From a virus, in IMG/VR virus record IMGVR_UViG_3300032287_001394: a DNA stretch of 64,000 nucleotides, one strand, 5' to 3'. A program made the position numbers and the translations under genes. This document shows, piece after piece, positions 43,548 through 56,015 of this stretch (positions within the stretch are counted from its first letter, which is position 1; the number at the start of each line of letters is the position of its first letter). The notes below the pieces were generated by a model that made no database searches, had not been told where the DNA came from, and saw only the letters and a list, made by a program, of their open reading frames with translations.

Positions 43548-43754
43548 ATGAAGATTAAAGTAGAAAATGAATCTTTAGTTAGGGATACTACTACTAATGC
43601 TATATTAGAAGTAGATACAACTAAGTTAAATAAGTATAGAGCTATCAGACAAAGTATTAAAGATAGAGAACATAAGATAGATTATTTAGCTGAAAGAATA
43701 AATAAATTAGAATTAATCATAGAACGGATGAACAATGGCGACAATATTACTTAG
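43548..43754 (+). CDS. Small coiled-coil hypothetical protein
   Basis: LVRDTTTNAIL pattern, typically found after the large virion protein. Confidence 0.7.
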   Translation: MKIKVENESLVRDTTTNAILEVDTTKLNKYRAIRQSIKDREHKIDYLAERINKLELIIERMNNGDNIT

Positions 43755-44913
43755 ACTAGGCGCAACAGGTGCAACGGGAGTTAAAAATTCTCCTCTAACT
43801 AATGCAGAAATAGATACTAACTTTAGTAATCTTAATACTGACATAGGTACTAGATTATTATCTAGTGATTATACGGCATCTGATGTTTTAACAAAGATTA
43901 AGACTGTAGACGGTACAGGTTCAGGATTAGACGCAGATCTATTAGATGGTCTAAACGCAGTATCAGGTGCTACTGGTGCTAGCATAGTATCTCGCGATGC
44001 TTCTGGTAACTTTTCAGCTGGTACTATTACTGCAACGTTTACTGGTAACGTAACAGGTAATACTAATGGCGTACATACTGGTGCAGTGACTGGTAATGTT
44101 ACTGGTAATACTAATGGCGTACATACTGGTGCAGTAACAGGTAATGTTACAGGTAATTTAACAGGTGATGTAACTGGTAATACCACTGGAAATCATAATG
44201 GTGCAGTAGGTAATGCTACTCCAAGCAGCGGAGCATTTACTACACTTAGCGCAGCAGGAATACTATCAGCAGGTGCCGCAGTTGTGTTAGGTGGAACATT
44301 AAGTGCAAATGGTTCTAATGGTAATTCTGGACAATATTTAAAATCAAGAGGTTTAAGTTTAACTCCAATTTGGGATACCGTATCAATTGACTTAGTAACA
44401 CAAGTTTCAAGTACACTACTAGCTGGAAATGGCGGCACGGGTTTAGCTTCAGTAGGTGCTAGCGGAAACGTATTAATATCTGATGGTACTTATTGGATAA
44501 GTGACCGTCTTACTGTAGTCGCTAATGATTTAAATGGAGATGCAACTGGGTCATTTCCAGCAGATGAACAAACTGGAACAGCTCCTATATTTGCTGCTCG
44601 GGCATGGGCACGTTTTGATGGAACTAAAGACACTACTAATGCTACATCTACATCAAATACAAATAGATTAATTAAAGCTAGTGGAAATGTTACATCTATA
44701 TTAAGAAATTCTATTGGTAATTATACATTAACATTTAGAACTGCTCTACCTAGTGCAAATTATGCAGCAATAGCATCTGGGTTCTTAAGCTCTGGTAATG
44801 CAGCTATAGTTACTACTGATAATTATACAACAACTACATTAACATTAAATTGTGTAGATTCTAGTAATGCTGAAGCAGACTTTTTAAATGTAAACGTTGC
44901 GATATTTGGATAA
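43735..44913 (+). CDS. Tail fibre protein
   Basis: SPLTNAEIDTNF, GSGLDADLLDG, TGNVTGN repeats, ARAWARFDG C-terminal domain. Confidence 0.75.
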   Translation: MATILLRLGATGATGVKNSPLTNAEIDTNFSNLNTDIGTRLLSSDYTASDVLTKIKTVDGTGSGLDADLLDGLNAVSGATGASIVSRDASGNFSAGTITATFTGNVTGNTNGVHTGAVTGNVTGNTNGVHTGAVTGNVTGNLTGDVTGNTTGNHNGAVGNATPSSGAFTTLSAAGILSAGAAVVLGGTLSANGSNGNSGQYLKSRGLSLTPIWDTVSIDLVTQVSSTLLAGNGGTGLASVGASGNVLISDGTYWISDRLTVVANDLNGDATGSFPADEQTGTAPIFAARAWARFDGTKDTTNATSTSNTNRLIKASGNVTSILRNSIGNYTLTFRTALPSANYAAIASGFLSSGNAAIVTTDNYTTTTLTLNCVDSSNAEADFLNVNVAIFG

Positions 44914-44922
44914 GGATATTAA

Positions 44923-46023
44923 ATGGCAAGCTTAACACTACGAAGCATTAAAGGATCTCCTCTAACACTGGCAGAGGTAGATGCAAATTTTACTGCATTA
45001 AACACTGAACTTGGAGAAAAAGTAGCTACTACATCATACACCGCAGCAGATGTGCTTTCAAAACTATTAACTGTTGATGGAGCAAGTTCCGGTTTAGATG
45101 CGGACTTTGTTGACGGTTTAAGTCCATCTGCAACAAATGCTGGTAATAGTTTAGTATCTAGGAATTCTTCAGGTAACTTTGCAGCAGGTACTATTACTGC
45201 AACACTAACTGGAAATGTAACAGGTAACTTAACTGGCAACGTAACAGGAAACTTAACTGGTAATGTAACAGGCAATACTAGTGGTTCAGCTGGTACTCTT
45301 GCTAATACAAGAACTATTAGTATAACTGGTGATGGTTCATGGACTACATCATTTGATGGATCAGCAAATGTAACCGGTGCTTTTACACTAACAACTAGCG
45401 GTGTAGCTGCTGGAACATATACTAAGATTACTGTCGATGCTAAAGGCAGAGCTACTGTTGGTGCATCATTGAGCGGAACAGATGTTACTACAGCTTTAGG
45501 TTATACTCCATGGCATTCAGGTAATGATGGATCTGGATCTGGATTAGATGCAGACTTATTAGACGGATATAACTCAGCTACTGCTGCTACGGTATCTACT
45601 GTAGCTGTGCGAGATGGTTTTGGCGACTTAACGGCAAATGTATTTAAAGGCACAGCAACTTCTGCAAGATATGCAGACTTAGCAGAAAAATATACTACAG
45701 ATAAAGAATACTCGGTTGGTACTGTCATTGTCATCTCTGATAAAGAAGATTCTGAATGCACAGCATCAGACTATATAGGACAACATGCTATAGGAGTTAT
45801 ATCAGAGAATCCAGCATTCTTAATGAATTCAGAATCATCTGGTCAAGCAGTTGCTATCAAAGGAAGAGTGCCTGTTAGAGTAATTGGTCCAATCAGAAAA
45901 GGTGAATCTGTTTGTGCAGCTACTAATGGTCAAGCTATATTAGGTCAAGTTAATGCAATTGCTGTCGCATTAAAGACAGATTTAACACATGAAGAAAAAT
46001 TAGTGGAGTGCTTTATATTATAA
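44923..46023 (+). CDS. Tail fibre protein with C-terminal ADLAE chaperone-like domain
   Basis: N-terminus paralogous to the 43735 gene; ATSARYADLAEKY...GVISENPAFLMN...GRVPVRV. Confidence 0.75.
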   Translation: MASLTLRSIKGSPLTLAEVDANFTALNTELGEKVATTSYTAADVLSKLLTVDGASSGLDADFVDGLSPSATNAGNSLVSRNSSGNFAAGTITATLTGNVTGNLTGNVTGNLTGNVTGNTSGSAGTLANTRTISITGDGSWTTSFDGSANVTGAFTLTTSGVAAGTYTKITVDAKGRATVGASLSGTDVTTALGYTPWHSGNDGSGSGLDADLLDGYNSATAATVSTVAVRDGFGDLTANVFKGTATSARYADLAEKYTTDKEYSVGTVIVISDKEDSECTASDYIGQHAIGVISENPAFLMNSESSGQAVAIKGRVPVRVIGPIRKGESVCAATNGQAILGQVNAIAVALKTDLTHEEKLVECFIL

Positions 46024-46523
46024 CACTTAATGAAGTTGTTGAATTTATTCACAACCCTTTGTCATATAAGCAACATTTAGTTTCAATAATAAATGACAGG
46101 GGGATACAAATCCCCCTTAATCATTCTAGCGAGCTGTATGAGGATAAGCCTAAGACTATTAAGGTCGAAGGGATGGAACGATATTCTAAAGTAATTTGGG
46201 ATAAGTGCTGTGAATTTGCAGATGAATATAATCATCATGGTCCTGTGACATGTCATGCATTTATAGCTCAAGCAAACTCCCCATCTTTTGATATGCATAC
46301 TGATCCAGATGATGTCATCATAGTATGCTGTGAAGGTAAGAAAACCATGATGGTGAATGGCACATATATAGTATTAGAGGCTGGAGAACATGTTTATATC
46401 CCAGTTAATACTCCACACCAAGCATTAAATGAATATGCAGCACTAACGTTAAGCTTTGGTTTAGAAAACTATTTGAAGGATAAATCTCGTAATGAATTGG
46501 ATGTTTTACCTAAAGACGACTGA
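46008..46523 (+). CDS. JmjC/Cupin_4-like Fe(II)/2OG oxygenase
   Basis: SFDMHTDPDDVIIVCCEGKK (HxD) ... LEAGEHVYIPVNTPHQA (distal His). Confidence 0.78.
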   Translation: MLYIITLNEVVEFIHNPLSYKQHLVSIINDRGIQIPLNHSSELYEDKPKTIKVEGMERYSKVIWDKCCEFADEYNHHGPVTCHAFIAQANSPSFDMHTDPDDVIIVCCEGKKTMMVNGTYIVLEAGEHVYIPVNTPHQALNEYAALTLSFGLENYLKDKSRNELDVLPKDD

Positions 46524-47532
46524 GACATGTAACTTAAATTGTCGCCATTGTTTTACTAATGGTATAAATGGTGCAAAGGTATATTGGGATCATAATAAAG
46601 TAATAGATTGGATTCATAGATTTTCCAATTATGCATCTAAAAGTGATACATTACATTGTGAATTTCATGGAGGTGAACCATTCTTAGTGCCAGTATCCCA
46701 GATGTATGAGGTATGGGATAAGTGCAAGGCTTTGTTTACTAATTCCAGTTGGGGTGCAACAACCAATTTGGTATTTAAATTATATCAAGAACATATAGAT
46801 TTAATAAAAGGTCCATTTAACGGTAGAATTGGAACTTCATGGGATCCAAAGATAAGGTTTGATAATAAGAAACAAATAGATCTTTGGCGCAATAATGTAA
46901 AGACACTGTTGTCTGAAGGCATAACAGTAAGATTGTTTATAAGTGTCACAAAAGATACTATAGCTATAGACCCAATAGTTTTATTAAGATGGATAAGAAG
47001 ATTGGGAGTTCAAGAGGTATCATTTGAACGATTGACTAATAACGGAAGCGCTAAGAAGTTTCCAGAGATATTTCCATTTAATAAAGATCAAGATGCATGG
47101 TTTTTAAAAATGCACCAACAATCTGAAAAATATGGTGCCAGACATTGGTTTGAGAATGATTTTTTAGAAACAATTTATTCTAAGTTTGAAACTGGTTTTA
47201 CTAAAGGTGGTACATTTTGTAGGGATTGTGAAGAAAAGATTTTCACATTAAATGCTGATGGAACCATTTCAGGTTGTCCAAATTCAGCACCAGAATTTCA
47301 ATTTGGCCACATAGATGACGATATAAATAACCTTATAAATAGTCCTATACGCCTAGAAAATATGGCGTGTGAGAGGTCTAGAAACCCATTATGTTATTCT
47401 TGTGATGTGTTTCAATATTGCGGTGGTGATTGTCACCAGTTATCTTGGCAAGATGAGATATGCGGGGCTCCCAAAAGTTTAATGAGAGAGCTTTCTAAGA
47501 AAAAGAAGATATTTTCTATAATACATGTATAG
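46492..47532 (+). CDS. Radical SAM/SPASM enzyme 1
   Basis: CNLNCRHC, FHGGEP; C-terminal CRDC...GTISGC...CYSC...CGGDC...C. Confidence 0.92.
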   Translation: MNWMFYLKTTETCNLNCRHCFTNGINGAKVYWDHNKVIDWIHRFSNYASKSDTLHCEFHGGEPFLVPVSQMYEVWDKCKALFTNSSWGATTNLVFKLYQEHIDLIKGPFNGRIGTSWDPKIRFDNKKQIDLWRNNVKTLLSEGITVRLFISVTKDTIAIDPIVLLRWIRRLGVQEVSFERLTNNGSAKKFPEIFPFNKDQDAWFLKMHQQSEKYGARHWFENDFLETIYSKFETGFTKGGTFCRDCEEKIFTLNADGTISGCPNSAPEFQFGHIDDDINNLINSPIRLENMACERSRNPLCYSCDVFQYCGGDCHQLSWQDEICGAPKSLMRELSKKKKIFSIIHV

Positions 47533-47550
47533 ATAGATAAAGAGGATTTT

Positions 47551-48078
47551 ATGGCAACAGTTGGCACCGTAGTAACAAAACAGAATATCATTGATGATTT
47601 TGTTAGTGCTGTAATGGTCCCAGAACAAACTAGGACCAGATGGCACGCAACTAATAGACCTACGTATATTGCAGACGTATTAGTTGACGCGAGTGTTGGT
47701 ATGGCCAATCCTATCGCATCAAACTTTACAGAAGCAATTACAGCAAGTAACATTGTGTCAGTGCTTAGAGACTATGCTTATGGTACTACGAGAGTAAGAT
47801 TAGTTAGAGCTGGAATTTACTACGAATTTCCGGCTGGTCCTGGTACAATAGATGAACAAGTTGCTTACGCTCACTTAAATGATACCTATTTAAGAACAAA
47901 TCCATTAAGTGTTTCAGGTCCAGTTGTTAATGATATCATTACTGCAGATCCATTAAATACCTTTTATACTTCATTAAGATTAGCATCTAACACAGATACT
48001 TACGGAGATATCATAGATCTTCGAATTTGCCACTCATCATGTCATTCAGCATGTCATAGTTCTAGAGGAAGAAGATAA
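47551..48078 (+). CDS. Putative modification substrate with C-terminal CHSSCHSACHSSRGRR
   Basis: AGAGGA SD; Cys-free 159-aa body followed by a triple CHSx repeat; lies among radical SAM genes. Confidence 0.7.
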   Translation: MATVGTVVTKQNIIDDFVSAVMVPEQTRTRWHATNRPTYIADVLVDASVGMANPIASNFTEAITASNIVSVLRDYAYGTTRVRLVRAGIYYEFPAGPGTIDEQVAYAHLNDTYLRTNPLSVSGPVVNDIITADPLNTFYTSLRLASNTDTYGDIIDLRICHSSCHSACHSSRGRR

Positions 48079-49124
48079 TGTTTCATTTATTTAACTCAGT
48101 TTATTTACATTTTGATTTTAATTTTGAACCGGCTGGAAAAGACTTTATATTAGCATCAGATATTTATGGCAACAAGCCAATGATAACGGTGCAAAATAAT
48201 GAAGTTTATCAATCTCAACCATCATTTGAAGATTTAATTAAGTATCCATTTAACGGTGACGAAGAAAATTTCTGGACTAATTTAATTGCTCGTAATAAGA
48301 AAGTTGTGGTATATGTTAATCCATCTCAACTTTATAAGTTGCAAACTAAGTATTTAAAGAGCATCTTTAAACATGCATCTATTCAAGATTTACATAGAAT
48401 TCATGTCTCATTTGTTGAAAGTACTAGATTAAGATCTTACTTTGAAGCTTCCACTGGGCCAGATATACGTAAACATAAAACACTTACTACTATTAATCCA
48501 TTATCATTAGAACAATTTGAAGAATTATATAATTCAACAGAAGTTTCTAAAGCCTTACAGAGCTTAGATAAAACCACATTATCATTCGAATATCTTTTAG
48601 CTGATTATGTTTATAACAAAAATAGCCAATATAAATCAGCCCTATTAGCTAAAAGTGAGGTAATGATTTGGGATAATTGGTTCAATGAACTTGAATATTT
48701 ACGTTATGAAACTATATTTGGTTCATTAGATCTTAATAAATTAGACCCTAATATTGAATTAGGTATTGGTACAATTGAAGAAGCACTTGCACAAAGTGAA
48801 TTACTAAAGTGGATTGTTGATCCAGACTTTGCATATAACAGAGAATATATTAAAACTAATTATGATTATAAAACATTTAGTTCACTGTGGGATAAAATTT
48901 ATAGTTTATATGGCGTGTCTGAAGATATGTCAGAGACAAATGAATTAATTAATACCGACATGTATGAAGAATTATTAAATCGTGATATTAATCGCGGATT
49001 TGGTTGCACTTATACAGGTGAAATGTTTAAAGAAAAAGCCAATCACGTGTTTGCATCATATTGCTATAATATTGCACGCACAAATGATACATCATCGCTA
49101 GCTCCATATAGATTGACTTCTTAA
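48078..49124 (+). CDS. Hypothetical protein (radical SAM cluster)
   Basis: 348-aa ORF coupled by TAATG to the substrate candidate. Confidence 0.7.
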   Translation: MFHLFNSVYLHFDFNFEPAGKDFILASDIYGNKPMITVQNNEVYQSQPSFEDLIKYPFNGDEENFWTNLIARNKKVVVYVNPSQLYKLQTKYLKSIFKHASIQDLHRIHVSFVESTRLRSYFEASTGPDIRKHKTLTTINPLSLEQFEELYNSTEVSKALQSLDKTTLSFEYLLADYVYNKNSQYKSALLAKSEVMIWDNWFNELEYLRYETIFGSLDLNKLDPNIELGIGTIEEALAQSELLKWIVDPDFAYNREYIKTNYDYKTFSSLWDKIYSLYGVSEDMSETNELINTDMYEELLNRDINRGFGCTYTGEMFKEKANHVFASYCYNIARTNDTSSLAPYRLTS

Positions 49125-49152
49125 TATTATTAGGTGAAGTGTTTATTATACT

Positions 49153-50277
49153 ATGAATATATTTAGTAATGAATTTAATGTTATTTATTTAAGAGTCGTA
49201 CAAGGGTGCAATTTAAACTGCACTCATTGTTTTACTCTTGGTAATAAAGATCCTTATATGGTTACTGACCTTAACTATATTGAGGATTTTTTGTCATCTA
49301 TAAAAGATAACGTCGACCCTCAAAAAGCTACATTTTATATACATGGTGGAGAAACTTTTCTTGCGCCATATTCACATTTAGCTGACGTTAATAAAATAAT
49401 CAGATCTAAGTTTGGTACTAAGAGGATAGACATAATTCCTCAAACAAATCTATTGTATACTATAGATGATGAGTTTATTAATTTTGTAAAGACCGAGTAC
49501 CGATCAACCATTGGTGTTTCTTGGGATGCTGACATTAGGTTTGGATCTATTGCAATTAATAAGAAGACTGATCAAGAAAACCTATTCTTTAGCAATTTAA
49601 AACAACTTCTTGCCAATGATATAAAAGTTCATATAGCAATTACTGCTCAAAAGCATTTGTTAAACTACGATCCTCTTGAGATTGTAAAAATGTTTGATGG
49701 AGTTGATTCAATTGACTTTGAATTATTAACTACATTTGATGAGAAAACTAGAAACTTAAAACCTAATAATAAAAAATGGGCTATATGGTTAGAGAAGTTA
49801 GTAGATTATTATCAGTATAATAAAACTACTTGGTGCTTACCACAAATAGATCTTTTTACAAAGGCGTTAATTACAGGTAATTTATTCGACTGTAAGTGTA
49901 ATTGTTGTGATAAACGCACTTTTACTTTAAATCCAAATGGTACTGTTGGGTTATGTCCAGATAAAACTTATGTTGAACCATTTTCAACTACTACTGAAAT
50001 GAAACAAGATTGGGCTACATTCCAAAATAAATCACTCGATGTAATAATGAAAAAGTTAGTTGAAATGGATCAACATACTATGTGTTTTGAATGTGAACAT
50101 TATGACATATGTGGCGGTAATTGTGATGCAAGTTTGTTTGATGATTCCGATGAATGTCCATTATCTAAAAGTGTTATAAGTAAGATTAGAAATAATAAAG
50201 AAGTTTTTATAAAACTGTATGAAGATAAAGCTAAAAACAATTTAACTGAATTAAGGAATGATTATGACATACATTGA
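49153..50277 (+). CDS. Radical SAM/SPASM enzyme 2
   Basis: CNLNCTHC, IHGGET; CKCNCC...GTVGLC...CFEC...CGGNC...C. Confidence 0.92.
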   Translation: MNIFSNEFNVIYLRVVQGCNLNCTHCFTLGNKDPYMVTDLNYIEDFLSSIKDNVDPQKATFYIHGGETFLAPYSHLADVNKIIRSKFGTKRIDIIPQTNLLYTIDDEFINFVKTEYRSTIGVSWDADIRFGSIAINKKTDQENLFFSNLKQLLANDIKVHIAITAQKHLLNYDPLEIVKMFDGVDSIDFELLTTFDEKTRNLKPNNKKWAIWLEKLVDYYQYNKTTWCLPQIDLFTKALITGNLFDCKCNCCDKRTFTLNPNGTVGLCPDKTYVEPFSTTTEMKQDWATFQNKSLDVIMKKLVEMDQHTMCFECEHYDICGGNCDASLFDDSDECPLSKSVISKIRNNKEVFIKLYEDKAKNNLTELRNDYDIH

Positions 50278-50980
50278 TACAATTGCCCCTATTCCAATTG
50301 ACTGTATTAAAGAATATTTTAAAGATAAAAATATAATGTTTTTAATTGACTATGAAAATAGTAAACTTGAAAACAAAGTCTTTTTGACGTATTTGTCAAA
50401 CCTTGACGTTCCTTGTGACATTAAATTAGATTCTTTAAGCACAGAAAAGAAGTTGGCTTTATTAGAAGCATATTTAAATATTAAAAATATTACCAATGTT
50501 CCTGCTTTGAACATCATGATGGCGCAAATCATTTTACATATGATTGGATCAGATCCATCAATGTTGTTTAAAACACTATCTCTTACACCTGAAGAGTGCG
50601 ATACATTCATAGAAAAAAATAAATTAGAGATTGAAAGATGGTTGATCTTCTTAGATTCAACTATGGTTTTCTTAATCTATTCTTATAAAGATTTAAATGA
50701 GAAAATTAAAGTAGAAGAAACTTTCCCTATCATTGACGATGAAAACTTTGTTGGTTTAAACGTTATTAATCTATTAAAGATTCCTGCATTCTTAGAACTT
50801 TACTTTGCCGCAGATAAACCAGTAGCACTATACTACTTTAAACGTCACTTTGAAGTATACATGTTTAAGGGCAAATCATTCTTTGAGTATTATAATAACG
50901 AGTGTAATGCATTCATTCCATTACTTAAACAATTAATTTCAAAAGAATTACCATTAACTCCTCCAAATTTCGAGGTTTAA
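50264..50980 (+). CDS. Hypothetical protein (radical SAM cluster)
   Basis: ORF overlapping the upstream stop; no recognised motif. Confidence 0.7.
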   Translation: MTYIDTIAPIPIDCIKEYFKDKNIMFLIDYENSKLENKVFLTYLSNLDVPCDIKLDSLSTEKKLALLEAYLNIKNITNVPALNIMMAQIILHMIGSDPSMLFKTLSLTPEECDTFIEKNKLEIERWLIFLDSTMVFLIYSYKDLNEKIKVEETFPIIDDENFVGLNVINLLKIPAFLELYFAADKPVALYYFKRHFEVYMFKGKSFFEYYNNECNAFIPLLKQLISKELPLTPPNFEV

Positions 50981-50981
50981 T

Positions 50982-52085
50982 ATGGATGCATATTTAACTT
51001 CAGGTAATCTGAACGAATCTAATTCTTATTATTTCAACCTTAATTTTGAATTTTTAAATGGATGTCAATTTAGTTGTAAAGGTTGTCATGTAAACAAGAA
51101 TGGTTCTGCGCCTATTAATGATGAAAGTTATCTTCAGCTTATGAAGATTATGAATTCATTTACACCTGAAAATTCATATAAACCATTCATTGCCTTTATT
51201 GCTCCAACAGATTTTCTATCTGCAACTAATACGTATTCAGTTTTAACAGATAAACGTATTATTGAAATCCTTAATAAGTTTAAAAGAATATCTCTCCAAA
51301 CTACGTATCTTAATATGGATAAGGCGAGTCTTATTGCTGATGTATTAAAAGAACACTATAGTAATATGGAATTAGAAATCAATGTTATCATAGAACCAGA
51401 AAAGATTGAGAATGAAAAGTATTTAAGCATTCTTAAAAAACATCAAGATAAAATGATTGATCTTTTAGATTGGCCTATACCAGTAAGATCATTTGGTATT
51501 ATGAATGTATTTGATTATGATTCTACTAAACTTGCAGAGATATTAAAAGATTACGACCATTTACATAAGAAAGTTCAACATCTATTTCAAACTACTATTG
51601 ATTTTAATTTTTCTTTAGGTAGAAAAGACGAAAACTTAACACACGAAGAATTTAAAAGTGCGACCAATAGAATTAAAACTATGTTCAATAGTTCTGTTGT
51701 TTCTGGTGAGAAAAGCGGCTACCTTAGATTTTCATTTGGTAAACTAAATGATTCTCTAATTGAACGACAATATAACTGGAAGAACGGCGAGTTTTATTAT
51801 TCACCTCTCCTTTATGAACGATATGTTTCTTTTATTGATGGATTAAAAATGAACATAGAAGACTATAGTGCAAAAGAATTTGAAAAGTTTGAAGAAGACG
51901 TTCAATTACAGCAATACCTGAATGTATCGAATAAAACTGAATGTGAAGATTGCATTATGTTAGGATCTTGTGTTGATCGTGGTATCTTACATCTAATGGA
52001 TGTTCATGGAGTTAAAGATTGTTTAGTTGCTAAAGATGCAATGCTAACAGTCAATAATCTAAAAATTTCAGGCCATCCTGCATGA
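50982..52085 (+). CDS. Radical SAM-like enzyme 3 (divergent)
   Basis: CQFSCKGC; no clear GGE motif; C-terminal CEDC..LGSC...C. Confidence 0.75.
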   Translation: MDAYLTSGNLNESNSYYFNLNFEFLNGCQFSCKGCHVNKNGSAPINDESYLQLMKIMNSFTPENSYKPFIAFIAPTDFLSATNTYSVLTDKRIIEILNKFKRISLQTTYLNMDKASLIADVLKEHYSNMELEINVIIEPEKIENEKYLSILKKHQDKMIDLLDWPIPVRSFGIMNVFDYDSTKLAEILKDYDHLHKKVQHLFQTTIDFNFSLGRKDENLTHEEFKSATNRIKTMFNSSVVSGEKSGYLRFSFGKLNDSLIERQYNWKNGEFYYSPLLYERYVSFIDGLKMNIEDYSAKEFEKFEEDVQLQQYLNVSNKTECEDCIMLGSCVDRGILHLMDVHGVKDCLVAKDAMLTVNNLKISGHPA

Positions 52086-53143
52086 GTGAATTCTTAAGAC
52101 ATGTTTTAAAAGATAAAATGCCAGACTCAACTGAGATTGAGCTGCATCTATTTGAGTTCTGTAACTTAAGCTGTGCTTTCTGTGGACAAGATCACGACTC
52201 TACAGAAGGTATGAACACTATTGAGGAAAAAGCTTTACAAGTTACAGACTTTATGAAAAAGTCTAATATGAATAGCCATATCGTTAATATTATGGGTGGG
52301 GAAATATTCAATGATTTAGTACCAGACGATACGTTTGAAAGCTATATAAAATTTTATAACATTATCAATTCTTGGTGTGACGACAATAATCATACAGTAA
52401 GATTTAATTGGGTTACTAACTTAATATTCTTAAAAATACAACGTATAAAAGACTTCATTAATACATTAAGAGCTATTAAACCTAATTCATATATTTCAAC
52501 TTCATATGACTTTGCTGGTCGCGGATTGAATTTAAATCGAACGTTACAATTTGAACACAACATTAAAAGCTTTAAAGATATTATTACAGTAGTTGGATTT
52601 GTATTAACTAAACAAGCAATTAAAAGGATACTAACTAAGACTGACAAATTCTTTAAAGATTATCTTTATGAGAACTATACCCTATACTTTGATTATTATG
52701 TTCCAGAAGCAAATGCAGAAAAAATGATGCCAACTGAGCACGAAATGTTGGATTGCATGTTATTCATTGCTAAGAATTACCCTGAGATTTATCCAATAAA
52801 AGATCTTATTGTTAATGAACGAAATAAGATGACTTGTTATTCCATGAATAAGACGACAATCCTTCCAAGCGGAAGAGAAGTCACATGTCGTTACATGGAT
52901 TATGATCCTATCACTTTCATAAATAAGATTGACTATAAATCAAACAGTAATATTATCCAATCGCATTTAGATAGAAACCAATGTTTATCATGTAAATGGT
53001 TTGATCGTTGTCAGTTTAGATGTTTTGTTCAAGCCGATTGGGCAAAACTAGAAAGAACACACGACTGTCTATTTAGAGAGTTCTTCAATAGAATGGAAAG
53101 TGAGAATCTATTACAATATGGATCTAATAATAAAACCGACTGA
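52082..53143 (+). CDS. Radical SAM enzyme 4
   Basis: CNLSCAFC, IMGGE; C-terminal CLSCKWFDRCQFRC...C. Confidence 0.88.
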   Translation: MSEFLRHVLKDKMPDSTEIELHLFEFCNLSCAFCGQDHDSTEGMNTIEEKALQVTDFMKKSNMNSHIVNIMGGEIFNDLVPDDTFESYIKFYNIINSWCDDNNHTVRFNWVTNLIFLKIQRIKDFINTLRAIKPNSYISTSYDFAGRGLNLNRTLQFEHNIKSFKDIITVVGFVLTKQAIKRILTKTDKFFKDYLYENYTLYFDYYVPEANAEKMMPTEHEMLDCMLFIAKNYPEIYPIKDLIVNERNKMTCYSMNKTTILPSGREVTCRYMDYDPITFINKIDYKSNSNIIQSHLDRNQCLSCKWFDRCQFRCFVQADWAKLERTHDCLFREFFNRMESENLLQYGSNNKTD

Positions 53144-54191
53144 GAAGTGCAACTTTAAATGCACATTCTGTTCTAGTACATATATCACTGAAGATAAAAC
53201 TGCCGAGTTAGATCATCAGTATATCTTTGACTTCTTAAAGAGGTTCCCGGAAACTAAGACAATTATAGTCAATGGTGGCGATCCATTGATGATGGAACCT
53301 GAATACTATTGGAAGATTATAGAACATTTAGATGAAATAGGTTCTGATGCTACCATATCATTTACTACTAACTTATGGCCGTTCTATAAGAATCCTAATA
53401 GATGGAAAGAGCTCTTTAATCATTCAAGATTAGGTATAACTACATCATTCCAATATGGAGGAGGTAGGCTTAAAGGCGACTTGACAGAGTTTAGTGAAGA
53501 AGACTTTTGGAAGTGTTCAGATGCTATGTTAGAGCATTGTGGATATAGACCAGACTTTATTGCAGTTATTACTGAAGAGAATGAGCATGACGCTATAAAA
53601 AACGTCGAATTAGCTAAGAAGATGGGTGTAGAGTGTAAACTTAATTATGCATTCTCATCAGGACCGCCAGTCAAGTTTAAGAATATAATCATGGGTCAAG
53701 AAGGTAAGCCATACTTGTTAGCGGACATATATGAGATATATGTTGAGATATGGAAAAGAGGTTTGACTGAATGGGAATATAATACTAAACAAATGGTTAA
53801 ACGTCTAAAGGGTGAAGGTACTACATGTCCACAGAATAGGGATTGTGATAGCGGCATTAGGACTTTACAACCATCTGGAGACTACTACTCTTGTGGTGCA
53901 TTTGGAGATGATAGACAGTATCCAATAGACTTTAACAAAGAAATGACTGGTGAAAAGATACATCCTATTAAGTTTCAATCTGAACTGCAGAGTTTAAAAC
54001 AATCATGCTATATTTGTCCTATGTTTGAAATATGTAATGGATGTAAGAAGACTATAACAGACCTTAAGAATTATAACTTAGTTGAAGAGCATTGTTATAA
54101 GATGAAGCAACTTGCTCCTGATATAATCAAAGCCAATGGATTAAATTTAGAACCCACTCCGTATGAGAGGGAATATGATTATATCAATTAA
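53118..54191 (+). CDS. Radical SAM/SPASM enzyme 5
   Basis: IIKPTEKCNFKCTFC, NGGDP; CPQNRDC...GDYYSC...CYIC...CNGC...C. Confidence 0.92.
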   Translation: MDLIIKPTEKCNFKCTFCSSTYITEDKTAELDHQYIFDFLKRFPETKTIIVNGGDPLMMEPEYYWKIIEHLDEIGSDATISFTTNLWPFYKNPNRWKELFNHSRLGITTSFQYGGGRLKGDLTEFSEEDFWKCSDAMLEHCGYRPDFIAVITEENEHDAIKNVELAKKMGVECKLNYAFSSGPPVKFKNIIMGQEGKPYLLADIYEIYVEIWKRGLTEWEYNTKQMVKRLKGEGTTCPQNRDCDSGIRTLQPSGDYYSCGAFGDDRQYPIDFNKEMTGEKIHPIKFQSELQSLKQSCYICPMFEICNGCKKTITDLKNYNLVEEHCYKMKQLAPDIIKANGLNLEPTPYEREYDYIN

Positions 54192-55113
54192 TCCATGGTA
54201 TTATTGTAACTTTAAGTGTGACTTCTGTTACTTAACTAAAGAACAATTAGACGACAAGACTCTATTAGATTTAAGAGTATTAGAAAAAAGACTTGATGAA
54301 GTCATGTCTATTGATGAGATTGGTGGGATAGATTTATATGGCGGTGAAATAGGATTACTACCTGAAGATTATGTAGAAGAATTATGTGCTATAGTTAAAT
54401 CGCGAGGCATTGATGATATAAACATAATCACTAATCTAAGTATGGTCAATAGAGTTATAACCAACCCAGATTTATATGTATCTGTTAGCTATGACTTTGA
54501 ATGTAGAGAACAACATGATCGTGTATGGGACAATATGTTTGCTCTTAATAATCCATTTTCTATATTAATCTTAGCCAGTAAAGATCTAATAAATAAAGAT
54601 GTAGGTGAGATGATATCTCAGTTAAACCTATTAAGTAACTTAAGTTCTGTAGAGATTAAACCGTATAGCATAAATCAAGCAAATTGCCACTCGGTCAGCC
54701 ATAAAGACTTTGAGTTATTTGTACAAAAATGGTTGGATAATGATATACAAATGAGGTTTGAGTTTGTCAATGAAAACAATATTCAAGCGACTTTGGATGG
54801 GTCTCGTAATGCATTCAGTAATGACCATGTGTATATTACTCCAACTGGACAATTTGCAGTCCTTGAGTTTGACCTAAATGATAAAGAATACTTTAAGACT
54901 TTGGACTCAATACAAGATTATAAAGATTGGGCATTAAATGAACCTAATAAGAACGTAAGTGATATATGTAAGTCATGTGACTATTATGGTAGATGTTTAA
55001 CAGAGCATTATCGATATGTTAAAGATTTGGATAATGGATGTAATGGATATAAAGGACTAATTGATTGGTATAAACATGGAAGATTGGAAGATAAGACAAG
55101 AGCTCTATCATAG
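54175..55113 (+). CDS. Radical SAM enzyme 6
   Basis: CNFKCDFC, LYGGE; C-terminal CKSCDYYGRC...GC. Confidence 0.88.
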   Translation: MIISINPWYYCNFKCDFCYLTKEQLDDKTLLDLRVLEKRLDEVMSIDEIGGIDLYGGEIGLLPEDYVEELCAIVKSRGIDDINIITNLSMVNRVITNPDLYVSVSYDFECREQHDRVWDNMFALNNPFSILILASKDLINKDVGEMISQLNLLSNLSSVEIKPYSINQANCHSVSHKDFELFVQKWLDNDIQMRFEFVNENNIQATLDGSRNAFSNDHVYITPTGQFAVLEFDLNDKEYFKTLDSIQDYKDWALNEPNKNVSDICKSCDYYGRCLTEHYRYVKDLDNGCNGYKGLIDWYKHGRLEDKTRALS

Positions 55114-55480
55114 ACTAAACACTGTCCATGATGATGACTTAAATGATAAGAATATAGAGATCACTGACAATATAGTGGCGGATGCTGTTAGGTATTTTAC
55201 CGAAAAAGACATAGGATGGATCTATCCATCTAAAAGTTATATGGTTGCTATATGTTATGCTAAATGGCTTTCTGAAGAGTTTGGCGGCAATCCTATAGAC
55301 TATTTAAATGATATAGATTTACTATTTGGCAATGACCCATATTTCATAATATATGATGAAGATGCTGTTACATATAACCAGATATTAGACCGTATAGGCG
55401 AATGGAAGTTTGATCAAACTAAAGGAATGGTTCCTGATGTTAAGAAGTATTTTATAGAGGAATTTATGATAGATGTTTAA
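55076..55480 (+). CDS. Hypothetical protein (end of radical SAM cluster)
   Basis: ORF overlapping enzyme 6. Confidence 0.65.
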   Translation: MEDWKIRQELYHRLNTVHDDDLNDKNIEITDNIVADAVRYFTEKDIGWIYPSKSYMVAICYAKWLSEEFGGNPIDYLNDIDLLFGNDPYFIIYDEDAVTYNQILDRIGEWKFDQTKGMVPDVKKYFIEEFMIDV

Positions 55481-55535
55481 GACTTTTACACCCCGGTCTA
55501 TAGAACCTAACTCAATCCTATTATAAATAATAGAT

Positions 55536-55676
55536 ATGGCAGCTATAACAAATTTCTACATAGACACTGGATCCACTTTTGGGGCAGTAATTACAGTCAA
55601 AGGATCTGACGGTCTACCGTTAAACTTGACTGGATTCACAGTAACATCATATATGGACTTTAATTATTATAAATAG
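55536..55676 (+). pseudogene. Truncated paralogue of the 55680 gene
   Basis: MAAITNFYIDTGSTFGAVITVKGSDGLPLNLTGFTV matches the N-terminus of the next gene, then diverges and stops; has its own TATAAATA at 55522-55529. Confidence 0.8.
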
Positions 55677-55679
55677 TAA

Positions 55680-56015
55680 ATGGCTGCGATAACAAATTTA
55701 TATGTAGACGCTGGATCAACTTTTAGCGCTATTATTTCGTGTAAAGGATCAGATGGGGTTCCATTAAACCTTACAGGATATACAGTTGCAGCACAGATTA
55801 GAAAATCTTATGCGTCAACAACAGCTTATAGTTTGAATGCTACCATATATTCAACTACAGCAGGTAAAATAAGAATAGCACTTTCACACACCGAGTCATC
55901 AGCTATAAAAGCTGGAAGATATATGTATGATATTGAGATAACTTCTGGATCAGGAGAGAGAAAAAGGGTGTCTGAAGGTATAGTAATAGTAACACCAGAG
56001 ATTACAAAGATTTAA
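55680..56015 (+). CDS. Virion-associated protein (BppU-N-like adaptor)
   Basis: PLNLTGYTVAAQIRKSY...GRYMYDIEI...EGIVIVTP; TATAAATA at 55668-55675. Confidence 0.7.
   Translation: MAAITNLYVDAGSTFSAIISCKGSDGVPLNLTGYTVAAQIRKSYASTTAYSLNATIYSTTAGKIRIALSHTESSAIKAGRYMYDIEITSGSGERKRVSEGIVIVTPEITKI

Follow-up and report, generated by a model that had tools for sequence, protein, structure and literature searches.

The tail protein and its C-terminus

The question raised by the locus described here is why a full-size myovirus protein should end in a short, strictly periodic run of cysteine and histidine residues. The locus lies in the IMG/VR virus record IMGVR_UViG_3300032287_001394, a stretch of 64,000 nucleotides (nt) that was analysed as a whole and is hereafter called the window, and the gene in question is the open reading frame (ORF) 47551-48078, which encodes a protein of 175 amino acids (aa). 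Its translation ends, at residues 160-175, in CHSS-CHSA-CHSS-RGRR directly followed by the stop codon; these 16 residues are referred to as the tail and the protein as the tail protein. The answer we prefer, and consider moderately probable, is that the tail is a substrate of the radical S-adenosylmethionine (radical SAM, rSAM) enzymes with SPASM/twitch extensions, and of the oxygenases, which are encoded together with it, and that the matured protein joins the virus particle.

Cysteine is present in the tail protein solely at positions 160, 164 and 168, and His is found at 32, 108, 161, 165 and 169, so that every Cys and three of the five His fall, at a period of four, within the final 16 residues. 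An earlier interpretation of the letters alone (the sequence-only reading) had described the coordinates, the Cys/His clustering and the four-residue period, and the ORF agrees with it exactly. It had also pointed to ITAS and ITAD segments in the body of the protein, which reminded it of small virion proteins; both are present, and “ITA” is the consensus in the family (alignment A1, see below). Fold searches gave no match that would bear on this likeness, but a homologue was identified by mass spectrometry as virion-associated (see below). The gene has a AAAGAGGA ribosome-binding site 5 nt ahead of its ATG, and at its 3' end the stop codon overlaps, as TAATG, with the ATG of a gene for a 348-aa protein, with which it is, judging from this overlap, translationally coupled. 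A gene-calling artefact as an explanation of the ORF was set aside in view of the ribosome-binding site, the coupling and hundreds of homologues.

Conservation of the tail and of its carriers

A word-based search gave 92 homologues of the tail protein, from which 38 diverse ones were aligned (alignment A1). A complete three-repeat tail is present in 90 of the 92. Mean column identity in the alignment is 28%, and its sole invariant columns are C160, H161, C164, H165, C168, H169, R172, G173, R174 and R175. An exhaustive profile search over 1.84 billion representatives (clusters at 50% identity) matched 815 clusters at E<=1e-3 and 532 at E<=1e-10, and among the matches listed the exact tail pattern ends 128 of 140 new representatives. 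The remaining 12 keep the CH repeats (nine of them all three) and carry a one-residue insertion, a variant basic end or a truncation. The tail is thus conserved among homologues, one of the points on which the sequence-only reading had said it could fall, and a chance origin of the tail is excluded.

Within the repeats, 241 distinct tails have Ser in 91%, 72% and 90%, respectively, at the second residue past His (tail positions 4, 8 and 12), the alternatives there being N, A, D, Q, K and R; the middle repeat of the window's own protein reads H-S-A. The residue preceding the tail is V or I, which closes a strand-like alternating segment. His-x-Ser is the prevailing pattern, and precedents exist both for HxS proteins matured by rSAMs and for His triceptides (PMC13128918, PMC11499958). 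The number of repeats is three in more than 98% of members, and 2, 4 and 3+3 also occur: four CHxS units were seen in two Bacteriovoracia metagenome-assembled genome contigs, and in an isolate assembly of Dysosmobacter segnis one contig has two three-unit blocks with Val-Val between them. Among 44 tail genes with enough flanking sequence, tail residues 4, 8, 11 and 12 showed no correlation with which rSAM paralogues are present. A tblastn search of cultured phages with the tail protein gave no match, probably because of divergence and low-complexity masking; queries with the enzymes did find relatives.

The bodies that carry the tail are of several kinds. BLAST clusters give at least two tail-bearing body families, one of 180-200 aa and one of ~127 aa that usually occurs as tandem pairs, besides singletons of 247-364 aa. 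Comparison of the two main families with hhalign shows that their common part is the last ~59 columns only (helix, strand and tail, probability 99), so the tail with a short recognition-like module can be regarded as a portable unit. In the window's protein residues ~118-159 (helix and strand) represent this C-terminal module common to other body families. An AF2 model of the whole protein has a predicted local distance difference test (pLDDT) value of 89, with 52-59 in the tail, where a short helix is placed at residues 162-168 in this low-confidence region. Searches with the model were uninformative as to fold: Foldseek against PDB gave nothing at E<=0.001, VIA-align in its wide mode a best Z of 4.2, the ESM Atlas TM values of 0.34 or lower, with a feature search below 0.9, and BFVD only the protein's own family. 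Three BFVD entries from one uncultured myovirus (A0A8S5USJ8, A0A8S5USJ7 and A0A8S5USV2, 504-660 aa) have the same body fold, and the models suggest that they are long or fused forms of the tail-protein body.

Another possibility is that the tail stays unmodified and binds a metal (Zn, Fe or Cu) or an iron-sulfur cluster, perhaps with all three chains of a trimer contributing to the site, and that the protein is a metal-stabilised piece of fibre or baseplate, or a scaffold or electron-transfer helper for rSAMs which act elsewhere. Cys and His are classic ligands, a period of four would place them on one helix face, in keeping with the modelled helix 162-168, and the almost constant number of repeats fits as well; in fibres and spikes of the T4 type, His serves to bind Fe or Zn. 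We nevertheless hold such a site to be rather unlikely, since tails with 2, 4 and 3+3 repeats exist, the tail is modelled at low confidence, and ligation accounts neither for the R-x-R-R end, which is as invariant as the Cys and His, nor for the strong preference for Ser at the second position past His. Tandem paralogues whose bodies differ also suit substrates better than cofactor carriers, and a helper of the enzymes would be unexpected in particles without those enzymes (see below).

The radical SAM cassette and its distribution

By its gene content the window is assigned to a T4-like myovirus and the tail gene to its baseplate/fibre (late structural) module, which contains a gp5-like hub-lysozyme, gp6-like and other wedge proteins, a 1856-aa DUF4815 protein and two short fibres. 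The second of these fibres, fibB, is a conserved upstream neighbour, as it is found 5' of the cassette or directly 5' of the tail gene in many loci. Eleven genes of the same orientation, overlapping or abutting, follow from 46008 to 55480 (~9.5 kb), and a terminator search over this operon found none. Their order is cupin, rSAM1, tail protein, 348-aa protein, rSAM2, 240-aa protein, rSAM3x, rSAM4, rSAM5, rSAM6 and 139-aa protein (Table 1). The cupin gene overlaps both the end of fibB and the start of rSAM1, and in most loci it precedes rSAM1. Within the cassette, a conserved Cys- or His-rich segment is confined to the tail protein.

When IMG/VR was searched with a degenerate DNA pattern for the tail, at least 120 contigs matched. 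In the loci fetched, simple ORF calls were labelled by BLAST to the window's proteins, and absences there are accordingly weak evidence. The recurrent order is DUF4815, fibB, cupin, rSAM1, tail protein, 240-aa protein, 348-aa protein (optional), rSAM4, rSAM5, rSAM6 and 139-aa protein. A second recurrent order has a giant fibre (at least 2000 aa, with a fibB-like C-terminus), two tandem tail proteins of ~127 aa and 3-6 copies of rSAM3x. The window's cassette, in which rSAM2, rSAM3x and the 348-aa protein are all present, is a long form that also occurs in some Bdellovibrionota loci. Of 191 tail genes, 92 have rSAM1 as upstream neighbour and 100 the 240-aa protein as downstream neighbour. When at least 3 kb of room was available, a cassette rSAM was present within 5 kb in 134 of 138 loci, and in the four others the sequence ends on the downstream side.

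The carriers are marine T4-like phages, jumbo phages and Bdellovibrionota chromosomes, with hundreds of marine and soil myoviruses among them. Cultured carriers, among them jumbo phages of plant-associated bacteria, are the group of RSL2, RSF1, FLC and SURPRISE13, as well as Atu_ph07, Phosso and pPa_SNUABM_DT01. The clusters of RSL2 and Atu_ph07 contain the same gene set; ORF068 of RSL2 ends in CHSSCHTSCHGSRGRR and gp170 of Atu_ph07 in CHSSCHASCHNSRSRR. In RSL2 a dihydrofolate reductase gene (ORF073, L001:16042-16578) lies amid the radical SAM cluster, between two rSAM genes. Papers on pelagimyophages, RSL2-like phages and Burkholderia jumbo phages name the rSAM, cupin and 2-oxoglutarate (2OG) oxygenase genes and give no function for them (PMC7029224, PMC5468394, PMC8066314, PMC11898562), and our literature search found no paper on the tail protein or its system.

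When GTDB was searched with the tail pattern, each species being represented by one genome, about 40 matches were true ones, about 27 of them in Bdellovibrionota, contigs of Mb size included. Three of these Bdellovibrionota genomes have rSAM1, 4, 5 and 6 and the 240- and 139-aa proteins, spread over both strands, and some of the three also have the 348-aa protein, the cupin and 2OG oxygenases. Their cassettes are flanked by genes for serine dehydratase, Mrp/NUBPL, SLT, DinG, SMC and LspA, and this position between housekeeping genes indicates that the cassette is chromosomal there and not part of a prophage. Bdellovibrionota rSAM5 matches its phage counterpart at E 1e-129 to 1e-136, and rSAM5 and rSAM6 together span E 1e-84 to 1e-136. 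A profile of the fibB C-terminus found no fibre gene beside the Bdellovibrionota cassettes. One of these cassettes is flanked by an unrelated 413-aa fibre-like protein with a Peptidase_S74 intramolecular-chaperone domain (L174:9765-11006) and another by two matrixin-like metallopeptidase genes (L176:13426-15168).

It could be argued that the rSAM cassette targets a fibre protein, a small molecule or DNA, and that the tail protein is a mere neighbour in a hypervariable host-recognition island. The region of the cassette is known for gene shuffling (PMC7029224), the RSL2 cluster includes the dihydrofolate reductase gene, and phage rSAMs reportedly take part in DNA hypermodification in other systems (PMC5889632). 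Tail and enzymes co-occur, though, across T4-like, RSL2-like and Atu_ph07 phages and bacterial chromosomes with reshuffled gene order and strand; without a functional tie this linkage would be difficult to account for, and the cassette offers no second Cys- or His-rich segment, so that we consider a different target most improbable. The tail as the substrate of the cassette, on the other hand, would account for an invariant sequence on interchangeable bodies, a shared module, variable repeats, tandem paralogues, a near-universal linkage with SPASM enzymes and the survival of this linkage on transfer between unrelated phages and bacteria. Repeat variation and tandem paralogues make the tail proteins resemble the repeat-core precursors of peptides that are ribosomally synthesised and then modified post-translationally (RiPPs). 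This is in accordance with the central idea of the sequence-only reading, a C-terminal core on a full-size protein that is modified by rSAMs, which gains support from tail invariance, rSAM adjacency, tandem paralogues and repeat variation; the chemistry it had proposed, Cys thioethers, His crosslinks or both, is a candidate.

Radical SAM enzymes of the cassette

CxxxCxxC is found in each of the six rSAM paralogues, at residues 13-28. As this motif falls within the first 35 residues, none of them has an N-terminal recognition domain. GGE or GGD is present in five of the six and absent from rSAM3x. At the C-terminus rSAM1, 2, 4 and 5 have CxxCx5Cx2-3C with flanking Cys, which is SPASM-like, while rSAM3x and rSAM6 have four-Cys, twitch-like arrays. 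The invariant C-terminal Cys of rSAM1 are C246, C262, C301, C304, C310, C314 and C324, and the enzyme scores 32.6 bits against the SPASM model TIGR04085 (cut-off 27). On these motifs and scores the cassette enzymes belong to the radical SAM superfamily with a SPASM/twitch extension.

Within that superfamily, no named maturase family is matched above its cut-off. The best full-length NCBIfam matches of rSAM1 are PapB (46.1 bits versus a cut-off of 340) and then DynA; rSAM2 best matches the His-cyclophane synthase YhhB (E 1.9e-15, 56.6 bits versus 445), and also matches the anaerobic sulfatase-maturating enzyme (anSME) and DynA. Against PDB the rSAM1 profile (A4) aligns end-to-end with anSME 4K37 (13-318 to 13-332, E 2.5e-7), with partial matches to CteB 5WGG, in second place, and to the triceptide synthase ChlB; phmmer searches of PDB with rSAM1 and rSAM2 were empty or spurious. 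The anSME equivalog TIGR03942 gave 34-48 bits (cut-off 349). HxsB and HxsC gave 24.9 (370) and 30.8 (267.9) bits, below cut-off and over the N-terminal core only, and the other named families of three-residue cyclophane-forming enzymes (XyeB, GrrM/OscB, FxsB and AmcB) 18-30 bits against cut-offs of 310-450. Even at E<=1, neither HxsA nor HxsD of NCBIfam was matched by the tail protein, by its homologues or by the uncharacterised partner proteins. In PADLOC only generic radical SAM core matches to pVip models were obtained (17-38 bits, mostly N-terminal) and none for the tail protein or the partners. A complex prediction in which rSAM1 (A4) was combined with SAM, three 4Fe-4S clusters and the tail protein's residues 110-175 gave no answer either way (score 0.01).

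Comparison with known systems

As far as sequence goes, the cassette falls within none of the named maturase families, and its closest precedents are HXS, Crp, the triceptides and anSME. In the HXS system HxsA, a protein of 214 aa with five HxS repeats, is matured by HxsB/HxsC with HxsD and gains 8 Da on S-H-R-S-S (PMC13128918). The likeness consists in a protein-size effector with tandem His-x-Ser, as seen in most members of the tail-protein family, two rSAMs with a small partner, and a matured protein that acts as a protein. Furthermore, S-H-R-S-S aligns with C-H-x-S-C of the tail, Cys replacing the flanking Ser. HxsA differs in having a peptidoglycan-binding domain, N-terminal processing and a Cys-free motif, and it is a periplasmic effector of bacterial defence; the cassette described here shares no sequence-family membership with HXS and has 4-6 rSAMs and oxygenases.

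The SPASM enzyme CrpC of Methanococcus voltae makes ranthionine links in the four-residue motifs CAGM, CAVD and CPLV of CrpA (PMC13692751). As far as the description in that paper goes, it resembles the present system in the enzyme type, in the protein-size substrate and in a Cys-to-i+3 spacing like that of C-H-x-S. In contrast to the enzymes of the cassette, which begin at CxxxCxxC, CrpC has a RiPP recognition element (RRE) and N-terminal substrate-engagement domains, and CrpA is broadly Cys-rich without His pairing, archaeal and without a virion context.

HaaB, YhhB and HtkB form cyclophanes between His-C2 and X3-Cbeta (PMC11499958). The tail has a repeated aromatic-X-X motif with His as the aromatic residue, the residues found two after His (S, N, A, D, R, K and Q) all have a beta-carbon, and YhhB is the best, full-length match of rSAM2. 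However, rSAM2 is outside the universal core of the cassette and far below the YhhB cut-off, and triceptide precursors are short leader-core peptides without invariant Cys. The anSMEs (PDB 4K36-4K39) are rSAM-SPASM enzymes of ~350-370 aa without RRE that act on a folded protein, and the third repeat of the tail has Arg four residues after Cys, which recalls C-x-P/A-x-R. Against this stand position 3 of the tail motif, which is Gly, Ser or Thr and rarely Ala, the lack of Arg in the first two repeats and the lack of a sulfatase. Ranthipeptides of the SCIFF kind (CteB, PapB) share a Cys at every fourth residue of the core, but their precursors have ~45 aa and their maturases an N-terminal RRE, whereas here the substrate would be a 175-aa protein with a folded body, the enzymes have no room for an RRE, and the invariant His beside each Cys is without counterpart in ranthipeptides. 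Attachment of heme through C-x3-C-H was also considered and set aside, as the protein has no signal peptide, assembly is cytoplasmic, and the neighbouring genes are always those of rSAMs and not of cytochrome maturation.

Virion association

Evidence on the particle comes from Atu_ph07. In the part of its virion proteome table that ends at Gp197, Gp170 is listed with 31.89 kDa, 8 unique peptides and 35.16% coverage, and it was found in gel fragments 1-9 with a peak in fragment 1, the top slice (PMC6102473 Table S5). The other 29-32 kDa proteins in this part of the table peak in fragments 7-8 (PMC6102473), and no cassette enzyme is listed in it; gp165, 166, 168, 169, 171 and 172 are absent. For the tail homologue P0003 a mass of 31.89 kDa was computed, equal to that of Gp170, and the masses of gp176 and gp177 agree too, which indicates that table and genome use the same numbering. 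One homologue of the tail protein is thus associated with the virion.

It is conceivable that the tail protein is a classical RiPP precursor, with a leader of ~160 aa and a 16-residue core which is modified, cut and released as a bioactive peptide, a metallophore or a cofactor. PqqA, MftA and SCIFF all have a conserved core at the extreme C-terminus beside SPASM enzymes, and the two matrixin-like peptidase genes which flank the cassette in one Bdellovibrionota genome would fit. Such a release is very unlikely in our view. The window and the fetched phage loci have no protease or exporter gene in the cassette, the body is confidently folded (pLDDT 89), a whole-length homologue was recovered from particles at 35% coverage, and the cassette lies within a late structural module. 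Presence in particles without the enzymes, the missing protease and exporter and the late structural module rather argue that the product is a matured protein and not a released peptide.

Several points weigh against the tail being an rSAM substrate that is carried into the particle. The evidence for tail modification is indirect in every phage, and the C-terminal peptide was not reported in the Atu_ph07 proteome. The virion data are from one preparation, purified with polyethylene glycol, that also contained RecA-like, single-stranded DNA-binding and ribonucleotide reductase proteins. The sample buffer lists no reductant, so the signal of Gp170 in the top slice could be due to disulfides. Three repeats in more than 98% of members, together with the Cys/His pairs, would suit a defined metal site as well. 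Finally, all rSAMs score far below the curated cut-off of every named maturase family, and for this reason the chemistry of those families is not transferable by homology.

Possible mechanism and significance

With these points in mind we infer that the tail is modified, and the following sequence of events can be envisaged for the maturation of the tail by the cassette. The 175-aa protein would be a late, probably virion-associated protein of a T4-like myovirus, and its last 16 residues would be a dedicated substrate for the core enzymes rSAM1, 4, 5 and 6, with rSAM2 and rSAM3x as extras in the window; the JmjC-like cupin probably acts on the tail too. The helix-strand module, perhaps with the 240-, 348- and 139-aa proteins, would present the tail to enzymes that are free of recognition domains. 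The likely chemistry would be abstraction of hydrogen at a side-chain carbon, then crosslinking. It may give four-residue thioethers from Cys-S to i+3, as made by CrpC on CrpA, or three-residue cyclophanes from His-C2 to Ser-Cbeta, as made by the His triceptide synthases, or an HxsA-like change, given that S-H-R-S-S maps onto C-H-x-S-C. The protein would be neither cleaved nor exported and would be built whole into the particle near the fibre or the baseplate.

As to the purpose, it is tempting, if quite unlikely, to see in the tail a crosslinked or metal-binding “warhead” on a host-contact protein that acts, while the phage adsorbs or its DNA enters, in the envelope or the periplasm of the host. 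Crosslinks of the tail would then possibly run between chains or to the fibre and give species of high mass that are stable to sodium dodecyl sulfate, as hinted at in the Atu_ph07 gel. If this were true, the system would be the phage- and Bdellovibrio-side counterpart of the periplasmic HxS effector by which bacteria block DNA entry, the first case in which enzymes crosslink a protein of a virus particle by radical chemistry, and a tool common to phages and predatory bacteria.

It is known that rSAM maturation concerns small peptides and a few proteins, i.e. sulfatases, QhpC and, recently, HxsA and CrpA, and our literature search found no paper on rSAM maturation of a component of a virus particle. 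New in the system described here are the virion protein as proposed substrate, the Cys-His-x-Ser motif, a cassette of 4-6 enzymes with oxygenases, and the distribution over phages and Bdellovibrionota. The ~9.5 kb of the structural region spent on it and its wide recurrence suggest that its function, at the interface with the victim cell, is conserved and costly. The cultured carriers make the hypothesis testable, with the 16-residue tail as a clean target for mass spectrometry, and a possible outcome is new radical chemistry on Cys-His-Ser motifs.

Other features of the locus

The genes of the cassette and the fibre gene that precedes it are listed in Table 1. Of the proteins of the cassette without assigned function, the 348-aa protein had no Pfam or NCBIfam match and the 139-aa protein no NCBIfam match, and the model of the 240-aa partner (AF2, pLDDT 90) found no match in fold searches.

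Table 1. Genes of the cassette and its left border in the window
Feature	Position	Strand	Basis and remarks
Fibre protein fibB, with intramolecular-chaperone-like C-terminal domain	44923..46023	+	tail-fibre PHROGs; weak Peptidase_G2 intramolecular-chaperone match
Cupin/JmjC-like candidate Fe(II) oxygenase	46008..46523	+	JmjC_2 35.4 bits (cut-off 22), Cupin_2 29.7 (27.2), phrog_8014
rSAM1, radical SAM/SPASM	46492..47532	+	CNLNCRHC at 13, GGE at 60, SPASM-like Cys array
Tail protein (175 aa)	47551..48078	+	ORF and translation; alpha/beta body, C-terminal module, 16-residue tail
348-aa protein	48078..49124	+	phrog_36207; found in part of the loci
rSAM2, radical SAM/SPASM paralogue, optional in the family	49153..50277	+	CNLNCTHC, GGE, SPASM-like Cys array
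240-aa partner protein	50258..50980	+	phrog_20767; directly 3' of the tail gene in most other loci
rSAM3x, atypical radical SAM-like	50982..52085	+	phrog_31457; CQFSCKGC, no GGE, four-Cys twitch-like C-terminus
rSAM4, core cassette enzyme	52082..53143	+	phrog_1802; CNLSCAFC, GGE, CxxCx5Cx3C; in most loci with room
rSAM5, core radical SAM/SPASM	53100..54191	+	Pfam Radical_SAM 41.1 bits (cut-off 29.5); motifs
rSAM6, core, four-Cys twitch-like C-terminus	54163..55113	+	Pfam Radical_SAM 31 bits (cut-off 29.5)
139-aa protein, closes the cassette	55061..55480	+	phrog_20737; follows rSAM6 in many loci

Late-promoter-like TATAAATA motifs occur 13 times in the whole AT-rich window, where 12.8 are expected by chance. 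Two of them, 12 nt apart, lie at 47322-47341 within the 3' end of rSAM1, ~210 nt 5' of the tail gene, and this pair could be an internal late promoter that raises expression of the tail protein. Two further ones are found at 55522-55675, past the end of the cassette and before the gene that starts at 55680.

In one Halobacteriovoraceae genome a gene for a B12-binding radical SAM protein lies directly 3' of the cassette's rSAM4 (L179:7572-9311), and a transglutaminase-elicitor-like gene is present a few kb upstream (L178:13782-15344). The two short fibre genes of the window (43735-44913 and 44923-46023) share an N-terminal motif, SPLT..E.D.NF, and Gly-Asn-Val-Thr repeats. The chaperone-like C-terminus is present on the second of them only, and in many phages it marks the cassette's left border.

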